Virus record (IMG/VR): IMGVR_UViG_3300021560_000014
Coordinates: 32,001 to 96,000 of that record
DNA length: 64,000 nt
Direction: 5' to 3' (one strand)
From: a virus
Within the stretch, counting starts at the first letter, position 1; every line of letters starts with the position of its first letter. The notes under the pieces are model-generated. The model did no database searches and had not been told where the DNA came from. It saw only the letters and a list, made by a program, of their open reading frames with translations. A program made the position numbers and the translations under genes. Shown here piece by piece: positions 9,734 through 59,702 of the stretch.

Positions 9734-9757
9734 GGGTGGGCAGGAAACGGCACCGCA
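9734..9757 (+). repeat. Dispersed motif GKGTGGGCAGGAAACGGSRCCGCA copy 1
   Basis: Directly after the spike stop. Confidence 0.95.
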
Positions 9758-9780
9758 ACGAAGGTGTGAGGAGGAGGTAG

Positions 9781-10476
9781 GTGGGAGCCTTAGCAACAAC
9801 GCTGGCCGGGATAGTACCGGACACCACGGCTGAGCAGCGGCCCATTATCTTTCTGCTGTTCAGCACTGCTTTGCCTGACTTTACCTTGCAGGGCGTGCTG
9901 GGCGCGCTCGCTACCTTTGCGCCCATGCTGGTGGTGTTCGAGTCGCAGGGCCGAGGCGTCATCCGGCCTCAGGAAATTTCATTCACCCGGCCTGCCAAGG
10001 GCACCGTCATCAACACCGCTGAGGGGGCTTTCCTCGACGACTTCGGCGAGGGCGTGGCCACGATTACGATGTCCGGGCACACCGGCTATGGCCAGGGCGG
10101 CGGCCTCCCGGCGCTCAAGCTCATCGAGCTGCTGATTATCGAGTATCACTCCCGCCGTCAGACGCTGCGCAACAGTGGAGCCGACCCCAATGCGATCCGG
10201 CTTTGGTTCCTGGACGCGCTCAACTATGAGGCGTTCAGCGTCTACCCCATGTCATTCACGGTCCAGCGCAGCAAGGAGCATCCGCTGTGGGTCTACTACC
10301 AACTGCAAATGGTTGGCCTGGACGACCTGTTGTCCGAGCTTGAGGGCTGGCTCGCCACCAAGATTGACGCGGGCCTTGGCGGTCTAATCGGTGGGGGAAA
10401 CAAGCTGCTGCCCGCTCTGGGCGGATTGGCCAAGACGCTGGGCTCGCTGGAGGTCTCCTTCGGCAACCTGCTTTGA
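9781..10476 (+). CDS. Baseplate/tail tube initiator-like protein
   Basis: IRPQEISFTRP...DDFGEG..TITMSGHTG...FTVQRSKEHPL..YYQLQM; strong RBS. Confidence 0.6.
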   Translation: MGALATTLAGIVPDTTAEQRPIIFLLFSTALPDFTLQGVLGALATFAPMLVVFESQGRGVIRPQEISFTRPAKGTVINTAEGAFLDDFGEGVATITMSGHTGYGQGGGLPALKLIELLIIEYHSRRQTLRNSGADPNAIRLWFLDALNYEAFSVYPMSFTVQRSKEHPLWVYYQLQMVGLDDLLSELEGWLATKIDAGLGGLIGGGNKLLPALGGLAKTLGSLEVSFGNLL

Positions 10477-10486
10477 GGAACAAGAG

Positions 10487-11164
10487 ATGAAACACTTTGC
10501 CTGCGGTGCCGTTTCCTGCCCACCCAGATGTTCAGTGAGCGCGGTGATTGTGCGCGCTAATGGCTACCGGGAGGACCTGGGCGAGATCGCCTTTTGGGAC
10601 CCCAGCCTGCTGAAGCGGCTGCAATGGCGCTGGCGTAAAGCCCGCTCGGGCGCGTTCTTCCTGGCGGCTGACCCGGTCGGCGGCCTCATTACCACGCTGG
10701 GTCCGCTCTTCCTGGCCGCGTTTCAGGTTACTGGGGGCCGCGCGGTCGTCACGGGCCGTCTGCTCGGCACGACGCAGCCGTCACCACAGTACATGAGCTG
10801 GGGGACTGGGCCAGGTACAACCGGGCAGGGTGATACCACGCTCTTTGCCGAGACCTACTCGACCTTCAACAACGGCACCGGCAACCAGCGCATCATTGGG
10901 GTCATGACGCAGCAGAACATCTCCACGCCCAATGACACTGAGCAGGTGGTGGCGACGATTGCAGCGGCACAGGCGCAAAACGGCGTGGCCGGGCAGCTCA
11001 ATGGCGCGATTGCCGAGGTCGGCCTGTTCGACAACATCGGCACCTCGACCGCGCTCAGCGCCGCGCCCTCGGGCGGCAATATGTACTTCAAGGCTGACTT
11101 CGCGGCGGAGGTCCTGGCGCTTAACGATTCGATCACCTTCACCTGCCAGGTGCAGTACACCTGA
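10487..11164 (+). CDS. Virion structural protein
   Basis: WGTG....DTTL..E / IAEVGLFD...SGGNM...DSITFT motif of tail/baseplate proteins. Confidence 0.6.
   Translation: MKHFACGAVSCPPRCSVSAVIVRANGYREDLGEIAFWDPSLLKRLQWRWRKARSGAFFLAADPVGGLITTLGPLFLAAFQVTGGRAVVTGRLLGTTQPSPQYMSWGTGPGTTGQGDTTLFAETYSTFNNGTGNQRIIGVMTQQNISTPNDTEQVVATIAAAQAQNGVAGQLNGAIAEVGLFDNIGTSTALSAAPSGGNMYFKADFAAEVLALNDSITFTCQVQYT
10502..10525 (-). repeat. Dispersed motif copy 2
   Basis: In the 5' end of ORF 10487. Confidence 0.95.
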
Positions 11165-13014
11165 TGGCCAACTTCAACGTAACCGTTACCGCGCAAAGCG
11201 GGTCCAGCGCCAGTGTCAGCACCCAGGTGCAGCAGGTGCTTGGGCTTGTCGTCCAGGCCACGTCCGGCTCGCTGGCTGCGCTGCAAATGTACGTCACGCG
11301 CGCCCCGGCGTACAAAATCACGCCGCCGCTGGTCGAAGCCTATCTGCGCGGCTCGAAGGTGCGAGGGCCGCAAATTGTCGCCCAGCTGCAAGCCATCCTC
11401 CAGCTGGTGGCCTCCTCGCCGGTCAATCTCGCGCCGGTCGTGGGGCCGGTCGTGCTGCTTGAGCAGGCGGTCTGCAAGGTCATGAAGACCGTGGCGGCCT
11501 ACATGATGAACGACCCCAATTATCCGCACCTGCCGCTCGCCATGCAGGACTCGATTGCGCAGGCGGCGGTCTCCTGGGCCGAGCTGTACGCGGTGACCGG
11601 CAATGTGGCCTTCTACGACAAGTTCCCCAACGTCAGCTCGCTGCTCACTACCTCGCCCTCGGCCCAGCTCTTCAGCGCCCAGGCGCGGGCCGTGGCCACG
11701 GCGGTCGATGTCAGGCTGGAGAGTTTCCTCAATGTCCCCATCCTGGCCGGGCTCACGGTGCAGACCTTCTGGTCAACCACGCAGGAGGCGGTGGAATCGC
11801 TCAGCCGCCTGCTGGTGATCGACTATGTCATCGGCAGTGACCCGACCATCTATTACGGTCCCAACGCCACGGTGCAGAACATCGTCGAGGACGCGCGGCG
11901 GGTGTTCCTGGGCATCGGGCCGCTGGTGCCGGACGTGCAGGCGGTGCTGACCCAGATCAGAGCGGCGGTGGCCTCTGGCTACGTCGATACTTCGGCCCTG
12001 ACCATCACCTCGCTGCGGATGCCGTCCAATGCCAGTCTGCAACAGCTGGCCGCGCAAATCTACGGCAACCCCGATCTCTTCAAGCAGCTGGCGGATTTCA
12101 ACGGGCTGGTCTATCCCTACGTCTCCGACGACCCGATTGCCAAGCTCGGGCCGCCCAAGCAGCTTGGCGTGCGGCTGGCGGCTGACGTGGTGCAGGGCAG
12201 CAGCAGGTTCGCCATCACCAACGTCTCCAACTTCGCCCAGGACGACCGCCTGCTGTTTCAGTACGATGGCCACATACAGGTGGTCACCATCACGGGCATA
12301 TGGGCGGTCGCGAGCCTGCCCTCGTGGGACGCCATCGGCGGCATCGACGAGCTGCCCGACATCGACACCGGGGCCGGGATTATCAACATCGGCAGCTTCG
12401 ACTGGAACACGGTGCCGCCGCAATACTACGACCGCGAGGCGCTGAACTTCACCATCCAGGTCTCGCCGCCGACCGACATCGCCTACGCTGCGGCTAACAC
12501 CGTGGTCACGCTCTATCCGTCCACTTATGACGGCGGCGTGGTGCTCGGGACCGGTGACACGCTGCTGGTGCCCAATGTGCTCGGGCAATCGACCGCGCTC
12601 ATCATCGACAACAATTACACCGATGCCCAGCGGCTGGGGACCGACGCGGCGACCGATCAGGACGGCAATCTGAACATCGCCAACGGCGACCTCGCCACCG
12701 TGACCGGCGTGCCGAACCTCAAGCAGGCGCTCATCAACCGCTTCAAGGTCGAGCGCGGCATGCTCATCCATCACCCGACCTATGGCACCGGCCTCAGGGG
12801 CTACCTCGGCAGGGTGATCGGGCCGGGGTCGGCCTTCCTGGTCACGGTCGATGCCACCCAGACTGCGCTGGCGGACCCGCGCGTTACCGGGCTCGCCCAA
12901 ATTCAATCGCTGCTGATCGCCGATGCGGTCAACATTGAATTCAACGTCGCCTTGGCCAATGGAGTGCTGGCCTTTCCGACCAACCTGGAGCTGACCGTGC
13001 CGACGGGCGGGTGA
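11164..13014 (+). CDS. Baseplate wedge protein (LysM/tail-X-like region plus C-terminal gp25-like domain)
   Basis: SLQQLAAQIYGNPDLFKQLADFNGL and GDLATVTGVPNLKQALINRF...HPTYGTGL...DPRV. Confidence 0.7.
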   Translation: MANFNVTVTAQSGSSASVSTQVQQVLGLVVQATSGSLAALQMYVTRAPAYKITPPLVEAYLRGSKVRGPQIVAQLQAILQLVASSPVNLAPVVGPVVLLEQAVCKVMKTVAAYMMNDPNYPHLPLAMQDSIAQAAVSWAELYAVTGNVAFYDKFPNVSSLLTTSPSAQLFSAQARAVATAVDVRLESFLNVPILAGLTVQTFWSTTQEAVESLSRLLVIDYVIGSDPTIYYGPNATVQNIVEDARRVFLGIGPLVPDVQAVLTQIRAAVASGYVDTSALTITSLRMPSNASLQQLAAQIYGNPDLFKQLADFNGLVYPYVSDDPIAKLGPPKQLGVRLAADVVQGSSRFAITNVSNFAQDDRLLFQYDGHIQVVTITGIWAVASLPSWDAIGGIDELPDIDTGAGIINIGSFDWNTVPPQYYDREALNFTIQVSPPTDIAYAAANTVVTLYPSTYDGGVVLGTGDTLLVPNVLGQSTALIIDNNYTDAQRLGTDAATDQDGNLNIANGDLATVTGVPNLKQALINRFKVERGMLIHHPTYGTGLRGYLGRVIGPGSAFLVTVDATQTALADPRVTGLAQIQSLLIADAVNIEFNVALANGVLAFPTNLELTVPTGG

Positions 13015-58771: not shown

Positions 58772-58795
58772 TGCGGCCCCGTTTCCTGCCCACAC
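58772..58795 (-). repeat. Dispersed motif copy 20
   Basis: Between a stop (58798) and an ATG (58765). Confidence 0.95.
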
Positions 58796-59269
58796 CGCTA
58801 ATTGAGCCGGTAGGGATTCTGAATCAGATCGATTAACAGCTGAGCTATGAACAGCTCCTGGCCGCAGACCGGGCAGCGGTCGCCGTCGTGCTTGATGGCG
58901 GTTGCACAGCACGAGTGCAGGTGAGTGAAGCTGCGCGGCTGGTGGCAGACCCCGCAGGACGGGAATAGGAATGGTGGTGTCTCGTTCTCCATCTTTTTGT
59001 TCCGAACCTGTGCTGCGTTCAGCCAGGCCCCTGACCCCCTTGGTTGTGCTGTAAATTCCCCTGTCCATTGGCCCCATCGATCATGGCCCTGATGGCCGCC
59101 GCCTGGAGCGCATAGCGGTCGCGGTCGATGCGGTCGCGGTCGATGTCCGCAGCCCGCTGCCGACACTCAGCCTCCATCACCTCCAGCGTCTCAGACAGCC
59201 AGTCCGGCGAGAGGTCCATGACCTCCCGTATCGACTTCTTCAGCCGGGCCTCCCTGGTCCTTCCGATAC

Positions 59270-59668
59270 TCACTCTTCAACCTCCGTCGGCAGGTCTTCC
59301 AGGGTTTCGATATAGTTCTCGTCCAGCTCCAGCAGCTCGTCGGGCTGTTCAACTTCGGCGTCGGCCAGGAACGCGGCCTCGTACTCGTCGCTCCAGGTGC
59401 TGTACGCCTGGCCCTTTTTGCCCTCCGCCCACTTCGTGTCGTGCTCGCTGATGAAGTCGTCGATCTGGCTCTTCATGTCGGCCACGTAGGCGCGGGCGTC
59501 GTCGAGCACCGCGTTCAGCGCGTCCTTGGCGATTTCCACGTCGGCCCAGCGGATGCGCAGCTCCTCGTTGTACTTCGCGACGGCGGCCTCCAGCTCTTCC
59601 TGGGCCGCATGCAGCCGGGAGATGATGTCATCCCGGCGTTTGATGTCCTGCTTGTCTAGCTTCTTCAT
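59270..59668 (-). CDS. Acidic coiled-coil hypothetical protein
   Basis: KWAEGKKGQAY..W motif; RBS from the dispersed motif. Confidence 0.6.
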   Translation of the reverse strand: MKKLDKQDIKRRDDIISRLHAAQEELEAAVAKYNEELRIRWADVEIAKDALNAVLDDARAYVADMKSQIDDFISEHDTKWAEGKKGQAYSTWSDEYEAAFLADAEVEQPDELLELDENYIETLEDLPTEVEE

Positions 59669-59678
59669 ATACTTTCCT

Positions 59679-59702
59679 TGCGGTGCCGTTTCCTGCCCAC
59701 CC
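59679..59702 (-). repeat. Dispersed motif copy 21
   Basis: Between a stop (59703) and an ATG (59668). Confidence 0.95.

Follow-up and report, generated by a model that had tools for sequence, protein, structure and literature searches.

Mycobacteriophage stoperators lie in one orientation relative to transcription. Known DNA polarity signals are short and mostly intragenic, the KOPS sequence of E. coli is GGGNAGGG, and localized single-strand interruptions are found in T5 and phiKMV-like phages. Phages 14-1, YuA, and LUZ19 have promoter motifs unlike those of sigma70, including an antisense promoter in LUZ19 (PMC10914365), and TIGR arrays join neighboring sequence at whole modules regardless of the neighbor (PMC12045711). 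Here we analyze a dispersed repeat in a 105,936-bp IMG/VR virus record (76% complete) of an uncultured phage; the repeat is most probably a phage-specific transcription signal, a function that is still putative. The window is the 64,000-nucleotide stretch spanning bases 32001–96000 of this record, and coordinates are those of the window unless the contig is named.

An invariant core repeated across the contig

The core GTGGGCAGGAAACGG occurs in 21 exact copies in the window, whereas shuffled sequences contain 0.22 on average and never more than 2. Extending the motif search to the complete record yielded 39 exact copies (8 on the plus strand, 31 on the minus strand) and a fortieth with one mismatch (GTGAGC..., contig 6270), and there were no copies with two to three mismatches in the 105,936-bp contig. 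An nhmmer profile covering positions -5 to +33 recovered the same 40 copies from the contig at 15–34 bits, with the next match at 3.2 bits, and detected no decayed copies. A sequence-only reading had described an asymmetric, genome-wide element with at least 21 copies in the window; these were found at the coordinates it implied, and the contig total is larger, at 40.

Conservation extends from approximately -4 to +31 (YYGGK-core-SRCCGCA-RNNWWGGKG). The logo shows pyrimidines at -4 and -3, GGK at -2 to 0, 15 core positions (1–15) that are invariant in 39 of the 40 sites, SRCCGCA at 16–22, R at 23, and WWGGKG at 26–31, in agreement with the proposed consensus GKGTGGGCAGGAAACGGSRCCGCA and its ACGAAGGTG-like tail. 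The block is asymmetric with sharp bounds and its core contains GGGCAGG, while the 3' end varies between +22 and +36 and the tails form families common to distant copies. Bases 13–19 read CGGGGCC in copies of the GGCC type, and 13 copies are of the CA type. As proposed, conservation acts at the nucleic-acid level, since the repeat is found in either orientation, both in non-coding DNA and within ORFs. Several copies were said to supply the ribosome-binding site of the next gene, but antisense and intragenic copies also carry the Shine-Dalgarno-like tail, which is thus part of the element and does not owe its presence to such a role.

Neither a consensus fold nor conserved secondary structure was found, and an Rfam search with the motif matched no family; together these rule out a REP-like palindrome, the form of host element raised in the same reading. 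Scans of IMG/VR, metagenome contigs, and GTDB genomes returned, among the matches listed, single chance matches and two unrelated tandem repeats, with no dispersed repeat on other contigs and no sign of a host repeat. The motif of about 35 nt, with its 15-nt invariant core, is best explained as a putative recognition site for one sequence-specific factor, with all copies probably held intact by selection.

Placement relative to genes and strand

Although only 15% of the DNA is non-coding, 29 of the 40 copies lie outside called genes (p ~1e-15). They are split between 31 on the minus and 9 on the plus strand (p = 7e-4). In plus-gene regions 7 of 21 copies are sense, and in minus-gene regions the figure is 17 of 19 (Fisher p = 0.0004); as a single predictor absolute strand predicts orientation better than gene sense does. 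Gene direction alone is insufficient to explain the strand bias. Sixteen of the 40 copies are antisense to local genes, and the 22% in the wrong orientation show no switch point along the contig. Independent gene calls reproduced the claim that 14 of the 21 window copies are sense. The estimate of about 10 copies within 0–8 nt of a stop was roughly right; contig-wide, 17 of 40 begin ≤15 nt after a same-strand ORF end, mostly by 1–4 nt, with TAG at eight of the stops. Membership of the stoperators or start-associated sequences, in contrast, was not borne out, since orientation does not follow transcription and a plausible start codon lies within 40 nt of only ~11 of the 24 sense copies (flanks read by eye); several sense copies have no gene downstream. 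In another TasA phage, L354, a stop-SD-start junction motif, ACTCTGGAGAGTAA, occurs seven times, always in sense, showing that such junction motifs do exist in the TasA phage group.

The late arm of the window has its genes on the plus strand. In the baseplate module, a sense CACC copy (9736..9750, +) lies 2 nt past the TGA that closes ORF 8258-9733, and the GTG of 9781-10476 follows 30 nt later; the flanking genes are conserved in relatives. An antisense CACC copy (10509..10523, -) lies within the 58 nt that separate plus-strand genes 9781-10476 and 10535-11164, and an antisense GGCC copy (13032..13046, -), whose tail abuts the TGA stop, separates the baseplate gene 11164-13014 from the Baseplate_J gene (to 14214). 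The conserved, co-transcribed baseplate genes thus have copies of both orientations between them. These genes abut tightly in the distant relative PHB04, and the three copies do not fall at gene gain or loss breakpoints in this comparison (relatives share only 35–45% protein identity), which weakens the proposed shuffling of gene cassettes. Further along, a sense CACC copy (25839..25853, +), 2 nt past the TAA of 25627-25836 and with the palindrome GTGTACAC 16 nt downstream, forms an inverted pair with an antisense copy (25900..25914, -) that has a diverged tail (GGGTCCG) and precedes the ATG at 25932 by 17 nt. Beyond the last late gene on the plus strand (25932-27950), 7 nt past its TAG, a CACC copy (27958..27972, +) is directed into the convergent junction with no gene ahead.

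In minus-gene regions, sense copies often lie 13–38 nt upstream of start codons. On the minus strand, sense copies are found at 29264..29278 (2 nt past the TAA of the DUF3987 gene 29281-30573), 33323..33337 (between 33348-33587, whose stop it follows by 10 nt, and the DNA polymerase gene 30775-33297, whose ATG it precedes by 25 nt), 33608..33622 (CACC; 20 nt before the ATG of 33348-33587), 41934..41948 (2 nt past the TAG that ends 41951-42250, with the ATG of 41689-41916 following after 17 nt), 52376..52390 (CACC; at the 3' end of ORF 52365-52775, which has weak support), 58779..58793 (4 nt past a TAG stop, 13 nt before the ATG of 58451-58765, with GTGTACAC 36 nt downstream), and 59686..59700 (CACC; 2 nt past the TAG that ends 59703-60047, with the ATG of 59270-59668 following after 17 nt). 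Two plus-strand copies are antisense, one in a gap between minus-strand genes (37907..37921) and one, with a diverged tail, inside the small, weakly supported minus-strand ORF 42247-42495 (42395..42409). The plus-strand ParB_N-DUF4417 gene 47252-48409 is flanked by two antisense copies on the minus strand, 36 nt before it (47201..47215) and 72 nt past its stop (48482..48496; GACC type, with GTGTACAC 40 nt downstream).

At least seven copies are in frame within protein linkers. The ribonucleotide reductase (RNR) gene contains three tandem in-frame copies (45–72 nt apart) plus a fourth, with two of its linker copies inside an insertion of ~37 aa that is missing from 10 bacterial homologues. A second triplet, 39–45 nt apart, lies at 27.3 kb of the contig, and pairs lie at 76.7, 98, and 104 kb. 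These in-frame copies, the absolute strand bias, and the link with TIGR arrays go beyond the sequence-only reading.

Junctions with TIGR guide arrays

Five forward copies directly head TIGR guide arrays or sub-arrays at fixed spacing, with AGCC, AGTC, or ACCG at +23 in three copies and AGCC at +32 in two. A GGCC copy (41454..41468, -) with the tail ...GTGAAGGTG heads the minus-strand dual-repeat array 40809..41442 (edge GCGYGAGCC, loop GCGRRNCCC, 9-nt spacers), which is split by a small gene; AGCC at +32 is the 5' end of its first guide unit. On the plus strand, an array of ~16 units (44780..45400), with a canonical hairpin-plus-T terminator near 45440-45470, is headed by a GGCC copy (44758..44772) from which AGTC and a 9-nt spacer follow at +23. 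Another copy lies within it (44860..44874, +), after the half edge GCGTG and 8 nt, with ACCG and the next unit at +23. The array preceding tasA is headed by a GGCC copy (57001..57015, -) that lies 1 nt beyond the TAG ending the winged-HTH gene 57017-57442, and AGCC follows at +23. The tasA gene (55586..56620, -; likely start giving 330 aa) encodes a nuclease-free TIGR-associated Nop-domain protein, as assigned from a match to PDB 9MTY (E = 6e-4) and homologues that carry PF02371. Arrays surround it at ~56585-56990 and 55338-55575, with a further array at 54579-54771. In the contig, three inverted copies come immediately after the final half edge repeat of plus-strand arrays, a position at which a terminator would be expected. 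None of the TIGR guide spacers of this phage matches the motif, and hence the motif is not a TIGR target.

Possible functions of the repeat

We tentatively favor, at a probability of roughly 0.35, a phage-specific promoter class of T7/Syn5-like form that would fire mostly leftward. Transcription initiation, its start position, and the reading polymerase are what we infer from the anatomy, copy number, invariance, positions, strand bias, and array junctions of the repeat. Transcription would start within the G run that closes the core on its 3' side; with G15 as +1, the conserved span would run from -17 to +8, with TGGGCA at -13 to -8 and the sole A-rich patch (GAAAC) just upstream of the start. 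The semi-conserved tail would then be a short built-in leader ending in the Shine-Dalgarno-like WWGGKG. In the right arm, copies would drive early/middle genes and TIGR arrays, with the first guide 8 or 17 nt past the start, and the leftward copies in the late (plus-strand) arm would yield transcripts antisense to the structural genes.

The sharp, asymmetric, invariant block without decayed copies fits recognition by a single highly specific enzyme, and the 31:9 bias, with strand outdoing gene sense as predictor, fits one class firing in one direction. The 17 of 19 sense copies in minus-gene regions, often 13–38 nt before starts, and the fixed spacing to arrays also count in favor. Promoters between co-transcribed baseplate genes would be harmless to read-through, whereas a constitutive roadblock would block it. 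The early promoters of this phage are ordinary sigma70-type (TTGACA-17-xATAAT) with their own inverted-repeat operator, a separate class that leaves room for a second, phage-specific one. Against a promoter, the surroundings of the proposed start are very GC-rich and so poor for melting, antisense copies make up 16 of the 40, at least seven are in-frame linker copies (including those in the RNR gene), the copy at 27958 faces no gene, and regular placement 1–4 nt past stops would be superfluous. No T7-like RNA polymerase (PF00940) or sigma-70 region 2 or 4 was found in the 106 kb of this 76% complete contig, nor any RNA polymerase in Pfam/PHROG scans of ~60 proteins.

By analogy with stoperators or the CIR of phiC31, the repeat could instead be a dispersed operator or roadblock site, which we regard as unlikely, though next in probability to a promoter class. 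A monomeric or two-domain phage protein would bind an asymmetric 15–22 bp site and modulate read-through at gene junctions and array ends. Both orientations at gene junctions and the three inverted copies at the expected terminator position would suit such a protein, and cooperative binding would fit the copy clusters (the 39–45 and 45–72 nt triplets, the pairs, and the inverted pair 25839/25900). Candidate binders are encoded nearby, namely HTH proteins (45717, 50754, and 57017) and the ParB_N-DUF4417 protein (47252) between its two copies. However, an operator leaves unexplained a strand bias independent of gene direction, the single orientation of stoperators fails here, and operators do not usually show the complete invariance of 15 positions seen in 39 of 40 sites. 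Occupied copies between baseplate genes would break the late operon, and the early promoters already have a separate, palindromic operator system on their flanks. A prophage-silencing role has no support, as no tyrosine integrase (PF00589) was found and none of the HTH proteins could be identified as an immunity repressor.

It is rather improbable that the repeat serves the TIGR system as a boundary (leader-like) or mobile module, in the form of a ~31–35-nt unit that is comparable in size to the 36-nt guide module and is copied in either orientation into junctions, linkers, and array edges to mark array start, stop, or seeding. Each of the eight copies next to an array has whole guide modules at its flanks, with AGCC 7–16 nt past the core or an inverted copy 17–21 nt past GCGYG, although whole-module junctions are typical of TIGR arrays whatever the neighbor (PMC12045711). 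All eight are of the GGCC type, whose CGGGGCC fits the loop-repeat core CGRRNCC, and none of the 13 CA-type copies has an array neighbor. The copies at contig 6270 and 6931 sit within an array between GCGYG and AGCC, and their excision restores the 36-nt register; a 1772-aa ORF holds an in-frame four-unit array together with an inverted copy in exact 36-nt register. Copying of whole 31–33-nt units would also account for the shared tail families and for the two copies in the RNR insertion. Yet 32 of 40 copies are not near arrays, most arrays lack the motif, and by a rough count ~4–5 intergenic regions hold both, against ~4 expected if independent. The motif ends vary and target-site duplications are absent. 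The contig yielded no integrase, HNH nuclease, or transposase, and the decayed copies that a selfish element should leave were not detected by the profile search.

A strand-specific DNA signal, such as a phage nickase site or a polarity signal for translocase, replication, or packaging, is less plausible still. It would account for the strand common to 31 of 40 copies regardless of gene direction, and exact-match recognition and the restriction of coding copies to linkers would suit an enzyme site. Among the phage genes is one for an FtsK/SpoIIIE-family ATPase (39623-40801), and GGGCAGG matches KOPS at 7 of 8 positions, but neither a KOPS-reading FtsK gamma domain nor an HNH nuclease was found. 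The 22% of wrong-orientation copies without a switch point, the contrast with the short, mostly intragenic polarity signals, the Shine-Dalgarno-like tail, and the fixed spacing to guide units all speak against it. Least probable, and quite doubtful, is an RNA signal in polycistronic mRNA (processing, coupling or enhancement of translation as in Cluster K start-associated sequences, or an RNA-binding-protein site), for although 17 of 40 copies closely follow ORF ends, ~11 sense copies lead through their tail to a start codon, and L354 offers a precedent, the 16 antisense copies, including those in the late arm and coding linkers, are conserved as perfectly as sense copies, conserved structure is absent, and several sense copies have no gene downstream.

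The putative promoter class has precedents in other phages, among them the motifs of 14-1, YuA, and LUZ19 noted above. A point against it is that the likeness to Syn5 is a shared hexamer, found after deliberately seeking resemblances. The Syn5 RNA polymerase promoter, ATTGGGCACCCGTAA followed by GG, carries T-GGGCA at the same -13 to -8 positions as the motif, and its polymerase prefers a GG start (PMC3950665). PAK_P3, likewise, produces early antisense RNAs over its structural genes (PMC4933390), as the leftward copies would in the late arm here.

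Copy number, placement and orientation of the motif

The contig is a linear IMG/VR virus record of 105,936 bp (76% complete by CheckV) from a contractile-tailed phage, i.e., a myovirus with sheath and baseplate genes. Genes were identified for the tail sheath, baseplate, baseplate J, major head protein, portal, large terminase, DNA polymerase, and a RecD-like helicase. The sheath is only ~35% identical to those of the nearest isolated phages (Aeromonas ST4, Bordetella PHB04, and several Pseudomonas phages), and its best database match reaches 42–45% identity. From contig position 1 to ~60 kb, the nucleotide metabolism, packaging, head, and tail genes point rightward; beyond ~60 kb the gene direction is mostly leftward, with the exception of a short rightward block at 77.7–81.5 kb. 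Also encoded are a Dam-type methyltransferase (window 28559–29077, minus strand) and, on the right-end piece of the contig (L053), a SAM lyase family protein (L053:517–1170, plus strand) and a DarA_C-domain protein (L053:3038–3532, minus strand). An 875-aa lysozyme-domain (tape-measure-like) gene contains a perfect 42-nt tandem duplication at window 5834–5917.

The 15-nt core of the motif, GTGGGCAGGAAACGG, has 21 exact occurrences in the window, compared to 0.22 expected. The sequence-only reading had reported at least 21 copies across the segment; that number holds, and it rises to 40 on the contig, i.e., 39 exact copies and one with a single mismatch, with none carrying two or three mismatches. 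A profile of positions −5 to +33 retrieved precisely these 40 copies, with scores of 15–34 bits, and the next-best match scored 3.2 bits. The motif thus forms a discrete family without decayed members. In the logo, positions 1–15 are fully invariant, flanked upstream by YYGGK and downstream by SRCCGCA (positions 16–22), R (position 23), and WWGGKG (positions 26–31). Positions 16–17 define two main subtypes, GG (n = 26) and CA (n = 13). The motif is asymmetric, with no dyad symmetry. Distant copies have tail families in common, e.g., ACGAAGGTG, GGCTTGGG, and AGTAAGGG, indicating that the copied unit is at least ~31 nt long. The tail has drifted since copying and the core is unchanged, which argues for purifying selection on every copy rather than a recent burst.

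The copies are concentrated at gene junctions. Although 85% of the genome is coding, 29 of the 40 lie outside called genes (p about 1e-15), and 17 start within 15 nt of the end of a same-strand ORF, mostly 1–4 nt past it; eight of these stops are TAG. The tail of sense copies is often the Shine-Dalgarno sequence of the next gene. The earlier proposal had several copies supplying ribosome-binding sites; the same Shine-Dalgarno-like tail is kept in antisense and intragenic copies and so belongs to the element itself. Three copies separate conserved baseplate genes whose counterparts in PHB04 abut tightly. These copies entered junctions that are tight without them and are no markers of gene gain or loss, which weakens the suggestion that the motif falls on such breakpoints. 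A motif copy also lies on either side of a ParB_N-DUF4417 gene (window 47252–48409, plus strand).

At least seven copies lie within genuine coding sequence. Four are in the gene for the class II (B12) ribonucleotide reductase NrdJ at L051:1–2010, which is truncated by the left end of the contig (L051 being the left-end piece) and encodes a TSCPD domain and a C-terminal zinc ribbon. All four are inverted, are read as PFPAH, and sit in the linkers joining the catalytic core, the TSCPD domain, and the zinc ribbon. Two of them fall in a ~37-residue insertion that is absent from all ten aligned bacterial homologues; this insertion, in the linker between core and TSCPD domain, consists largely of the two inverted copies. 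A 1772-aa internal-protein ORF holds one inverted copy adjoining an in-frame TIGR array. Two sense copies of a third subtype (CAAGCGT) occur in a 362-aa ORF (L053:8434–9522, contig 103434–104522, minus strand), the linker of which contains a 31-residue tandem duplication (AQRARQGGQETASV...) with one copy per repeat.

Between terL and the portal gene, and opposed to the late arm, lies a gene for a 640-aa right-handed beta-helix protein (L051:7131–9053, minus strand). Motif copies occur 38 and ~360 nt upstream of it and 3 and ~185 nt past its stop, and all four share its sense. The gene was absent from relatives among the fetched loci and looks like an inserted depolymerase-type gene.

Strand usage is biased: the minus strand carries 31 copies and the plus strand nine (p 7e-4), or 20 and eight when the copies are pooled into 28 independent clusters (p 0.036). 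With respect to local genes, 24 copies are sense and 16 (40%) antisense. Sense copies account for 17 of 19 in minus-gene regions but only 7 of 21 in plus-gene regions, so homogeneity of sense orientation between regions is rejected (Fisher p 0.0004). For absolute strand it is not rejected (p 0.13), which makes absolute strand the better single predictor. No switch point in orientation was seen along the contig.

Motif copies at the ends of TIGR arrays

The window also contains a second repeat family, with a 36-nt period, GCGYGAGCC-N9-GCGRRNCCC-N9, that fits the published anatomy of dual-repeat TIGR (guide-RNA) arrays (PMC12045711). Such arrays open on an edge repeat that is 5′-truncated and close on a 3′-truncated edge (Faure et al., 2025, PMC12045711). 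By its sequence relationships, the ORF at window 55586–56620 is a predicted nuclease-free Tas protein (TasA): its best PDB match is the Nop region of TasR 9MTY, its homologues carry PF02371, and the nearest of these, on short Logan contigs, are 60–66% identical. This one TasA serves about a dozen arrays. Stringent parsing gave 73 guide units at about a dozen dispersed sites, and the real number is probably about 100. Arrays occur in the window at 40809–41442, 44780–45400, 54579–54771, 55338–55575, 56585–56990, and 63354–63475, and elsewhere on the contig at 2.7–7.1 kb, 18.4 kb, and 96.9–97.2 kb. Many open at the previous gene's stop codon, and that of terL falls within an edge repeat.

Eight motif copies, all of the GG subtype, touch array ends. 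Five forward copies head arrays or sub-arrays in which the 5′ half edge of the first guide is AGCC, AGTC, or ACCG. This half edge begins at position +23 in three copies (window 44758, 44860, and 57001), and AGCC begins at +32 in the other two (window 41454 and contig 6270). Three inverted copies (contig 6931, 7113, and 18572) close arrays, 17–21 nt past the last 3′-truncated edge GCGYG. The copies at contig 6270 and 6931 are array-internal, between GCGYG and AGCC, and their removal restores the register. The motif stands at the ends of several arrays of one genome and in both orientations relative to them.

Two apparent features of these arrays were discarded. The tRNA-like sequence following window 44758 and 44860 is the first TIGR unit, and ARAGORN found zero tRNAs on the contig. 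The ORF at window 44696–45397, which resembles a repeat protein over an array, is not coding, as its register shifts with the 35–37-nt period.

A possible phage-specific promoter and its rivals

We tentatively favor reading the motif as a phage-specific promoter, to which we assign a probability of about 35%. Transcription would start at the G in core position 15, and the conserved span would then run from −17 to +8. The only A-rich patch would sit immediately before the start, with GG(GG) following GAAAC, and the tail would act as a short leader that brings its own ribosome-binding site. In five (sub-)arrays, the first guide RNA would then begin 8 or 17 nt past the start, fitting arrays that open with a 5′-truncated edge. 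Firing mostly leftward, the class would be sense to the genes of the early arm and antisense to those of the late arm, matching the observed strand bias.

The asymmetric, sharply bounded, and invariant block resembles the promoters of dedicated polymerases. T7-class promoters have a conserved asymmetric block of ~17–23 nt, roughly −17 to +6, and a G start. In common with them, the motif is an asymmetric, near-invariant 15–23-nt block repeated between genes and, if +1 is core G15, has a G-rich start after an A-rich patch. In contrast to them, it occurs in a myovirus, 40% of its copies are antisense and several intragenic, and the proposed start is GC-rich. The Syn5 RNA polymerase promoter is ATTGGGCACCCGTAA followed by GG, and the enzyme prefers GG starts (PMC3950665); with +1 at core G15, the motif has T-GGGCA at −13 to −8, the same as in the Syn5 promoter, though this likeness amounts to a single shared hexamer. 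Antisense copies have precedents. The 20-bp promoter set of LUZ19/phiKMV includes one, and phage-specific promoter motifs unlike sigma70, one of them antisense, are described in 14-1, YuA, and LUZ19 (PMC10914365). In the virulent myovirus PAK_P3, early antisense transcription covers the structural genes (PMC4933390). This provides a rationale for promoter-like elements opposing late genes, some of them intragenic, although the antisense starts of PAK_P3 are not tied to one invariant motif.

Several findings count against the promoter. The contig, 76% of the genome, revealed neither a polymerase nor a specificity factor: its 106 kb yielded no candidate T7-like polymerase (PF00940), in a search in which the control genomes for PF00940 also gave no signal, and no sigma-70 regions. 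In addition, the proposed start region is GC-rich, and some copies are tandem and intragenic. A sigma54 or ECF promoter was rejected: judged by eye, the GG/GC spacing misses by one position and fails in the CACC copies, and no conserved −10 occurs at ECF spacing. A general upstream sigma70 promoter was rejected as positions −24 to −5 hold no information; only the copy at contig 9415 has a weak upstream TTGACT-18-TAAGGT.

The early promoters are of the ordinary sigma70 type, TTGACA-17-xATAAT, and are enclosed by the two arms of an inverted repeat, CAGCTGGCAAA...TTTGCCAGCTG. They lie at window 41165–41193, 55304–55335, 60078–60125, 61664–61700, and 63300–63345, and at contig 99558–99590, 102625–102650, and 105382–105420. 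Half sites of the inverted repeat number 38 on the contig, on both strands, compared to about 1.3 expected, and the repeat probably serves as operator for a dimeric regulator of early transcription. Ten half sites lie singly within plus-strand late genes. A class of host-polymerase promoters with its own operator is therefore already present; the 15-nt motif is a signal of a different class. There are also 13 copies of a palindrome, GTGTACAC, often CGTGTACACG, where 1.3 are expected (contig 7089, 33085, 34355, 46487, 57869, 80435, 88843, 90736, 96079, 98862, 100342, 101023, and 101892); two of these overlap the −35 region of early promoters, whereas another four are found 16–40 nt downstream of a copy of the 15-nt motif. 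A promoter role for the motif would show how the scattered guides of a TIGR-TasA phage are expressed. It would also point to a further polymerase or specificity factor, and perhaps to early antisense transcription across the genome.

It is less probable that the motif is a protein-binding operator or roadblock. Such a site would account for the clusters and for both orientations, but would leave the strand bias and the invariance unexplained.

We consider it unlikely that the motif is a TIGR boundary or mobile module. This would account for the array junctions, the link with the GG subtype, and the linker insertions, and the eight copies at array ends are exactly in leader or trailer position, by analogy with CRISPR leaders. 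However, it explains neither the 32 copies nowhere near arrays nor the absence of decayed copies. Whole-module ends are moreover a general property of TIGR arrays, which counts against a special link, and by our own rough count the motif and arrays co-occur in the same intergenic regions about as often as expected by chance. No leader motif is described in the TIGR literature, and most motif copies are far from arrays. Its specific form, a leader-like boundary element next to which guide modules of 36 nt would be joined on whole, or which would be the source for seeding and moving arrays, is an outside chance. If true, it would explain ~100 guides scattered over a dozen sites, some in-frame within genes, and would give a first handle on the origin and growth of TIGR arrays, an open question in both TIGR papers. 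A role as target of the phage's own guides was rejected: no spacer matched it at 8 of 9 positions or better, no dual-spacer self-target had two or fewer mismatches, and motif 9-mers occurred elsewhere at chance level (16 compared to 18.6 expected). Nor is it a guide unit, since it is without edge repeats and its resemblance to the loop core is limited to bases 13–19.

A strand-specific nick or polarity site would account for the strand bias and exactness but not for the tail, and we regard it as a long shot. The 31:9 bias is compatible with the localized nick sites of T5 and phiKMV-like phages, which are single-strand breaks in virion DNA. Profile searches of the contig found neither an HNH nuclease nor a tyrosine integrase, nor an FtsK gamma domain. 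KOPS are read by the FtsK gamma domain and switch skew at the terminus. A KOPS-type polarity sequence was rejected, as an FtsK/SpoIIIE motor is present but without a gamma domain, and orientation along the contig does not switch; the gene for this FtsK/SpoIIIE-family ATPase, in which the gamma domain is not detectable, lies at window 39623–40801 (minus strand).

An RNA-level junction signal is the least credible explanation; the antisense copies, which are perfectly conserved, speak against it. Readthrough of TAG stops was discarded because the downstream genes are out of frame. No consistent target-site duplications flank the motif. The motif provides a compact, testable sequence for 5′-end mapping, pull-downs, and nick mapping.

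Comparison with known dispersed repeats

REP/MITE-like repeats are imperfect hairpin-forming palindromes with many diverged copies and are abundant in the host chromosome. The motif is without consensus structure on either strand and without diverged copies, and it has no Rfam match. With neither a conserved fold nor an Rfam match, the motif is no terminator, REP element, or attC-like site. Scans for the exact core in IMG/VR, metagenome, and GTDB contigs returned only single chance matches (for metagenome and GTDB contigs, among the matches listed), and two contigs with double core matches (L095 and L205) proved to be unrelated tandem repeats. A second scanned pattern, CAGGAAACGGSRCCGC, gave nothing beyond single matches. 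REP-like abundance in a host, which the sequence-only reading had raised, is thus not borne out: among the matches listed, no genome or contig has genuine multiple copies. The motif profile had no match in 126 fetched loci (46 of sheath relatives and 80 of TasA phages), and no analogous repeat was found in the structural regions of relatives.

Cluster A stoperators, i.e., the sites of L5 gp71, are short asymmetric sites present in tens of copies genome-wide, mostly in short intergenic gaps and with an orientation bias. The motif is like them in being asymmetric and in having 40 copies, 29 of them outside called genes. The analogy breaks down on orientation, since the motif ignores the direction of transcription instead of keeping one orientation to it (7/21 compared to 17/19 sense, Fisher p 0.0004). 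There is also no sequence similarity, the core is longer and free of site-to-site variation, and copies occur in coding linkers and at TIGR array ends. Stoperators are bound by the immunity repressor of a temperate phage; on the contig, no tyrosine integrase was detected and no immunity repressor could be identified. Several HTH proteins are encoded, among them those at window 45717–46412, 50754–51572, and 57017–57442, none assignable to the motif.

Cluster K start-associated sequences lie a few bases upstream of start codons and are always sense. The motif shares with them a conserved block upstream of starts that supplies or overlaps the ribosome-binding site, often directly after the previous stop. 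This analogy is confined to a minority of copies: by our own reading of the flanks by eye, ~11 of the 24 sense copies have a plausible start codon within 40 nt, i.e., only ~11 of 40 are start-associated, and 16 are antisense. Furthermore, the Shine-Dalgarno-like tail is kept even where no gene follows, and five copies lead into arrays. Another TasA phage, L354 (IMGVR_UViG_3300050821_009329), has a start-associated junction motif unrelated in sequence, ACTCTGGAGAGTAA, with seven sense copies at 3301–9684, each directly after a stop codon and 1–4 nt before an ATG.

Dispersed phage repeats are already known as a kind, in the form of stoperators, start-associated sequences, and polymerase-specific promoters. 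The combination seen here has not been described together: 15-nt invariance in 39 of 40 copies, a strand bias blind to gene direction, in-frame copies tolerated in coding linkers, and exact placement at TIGR array ends.
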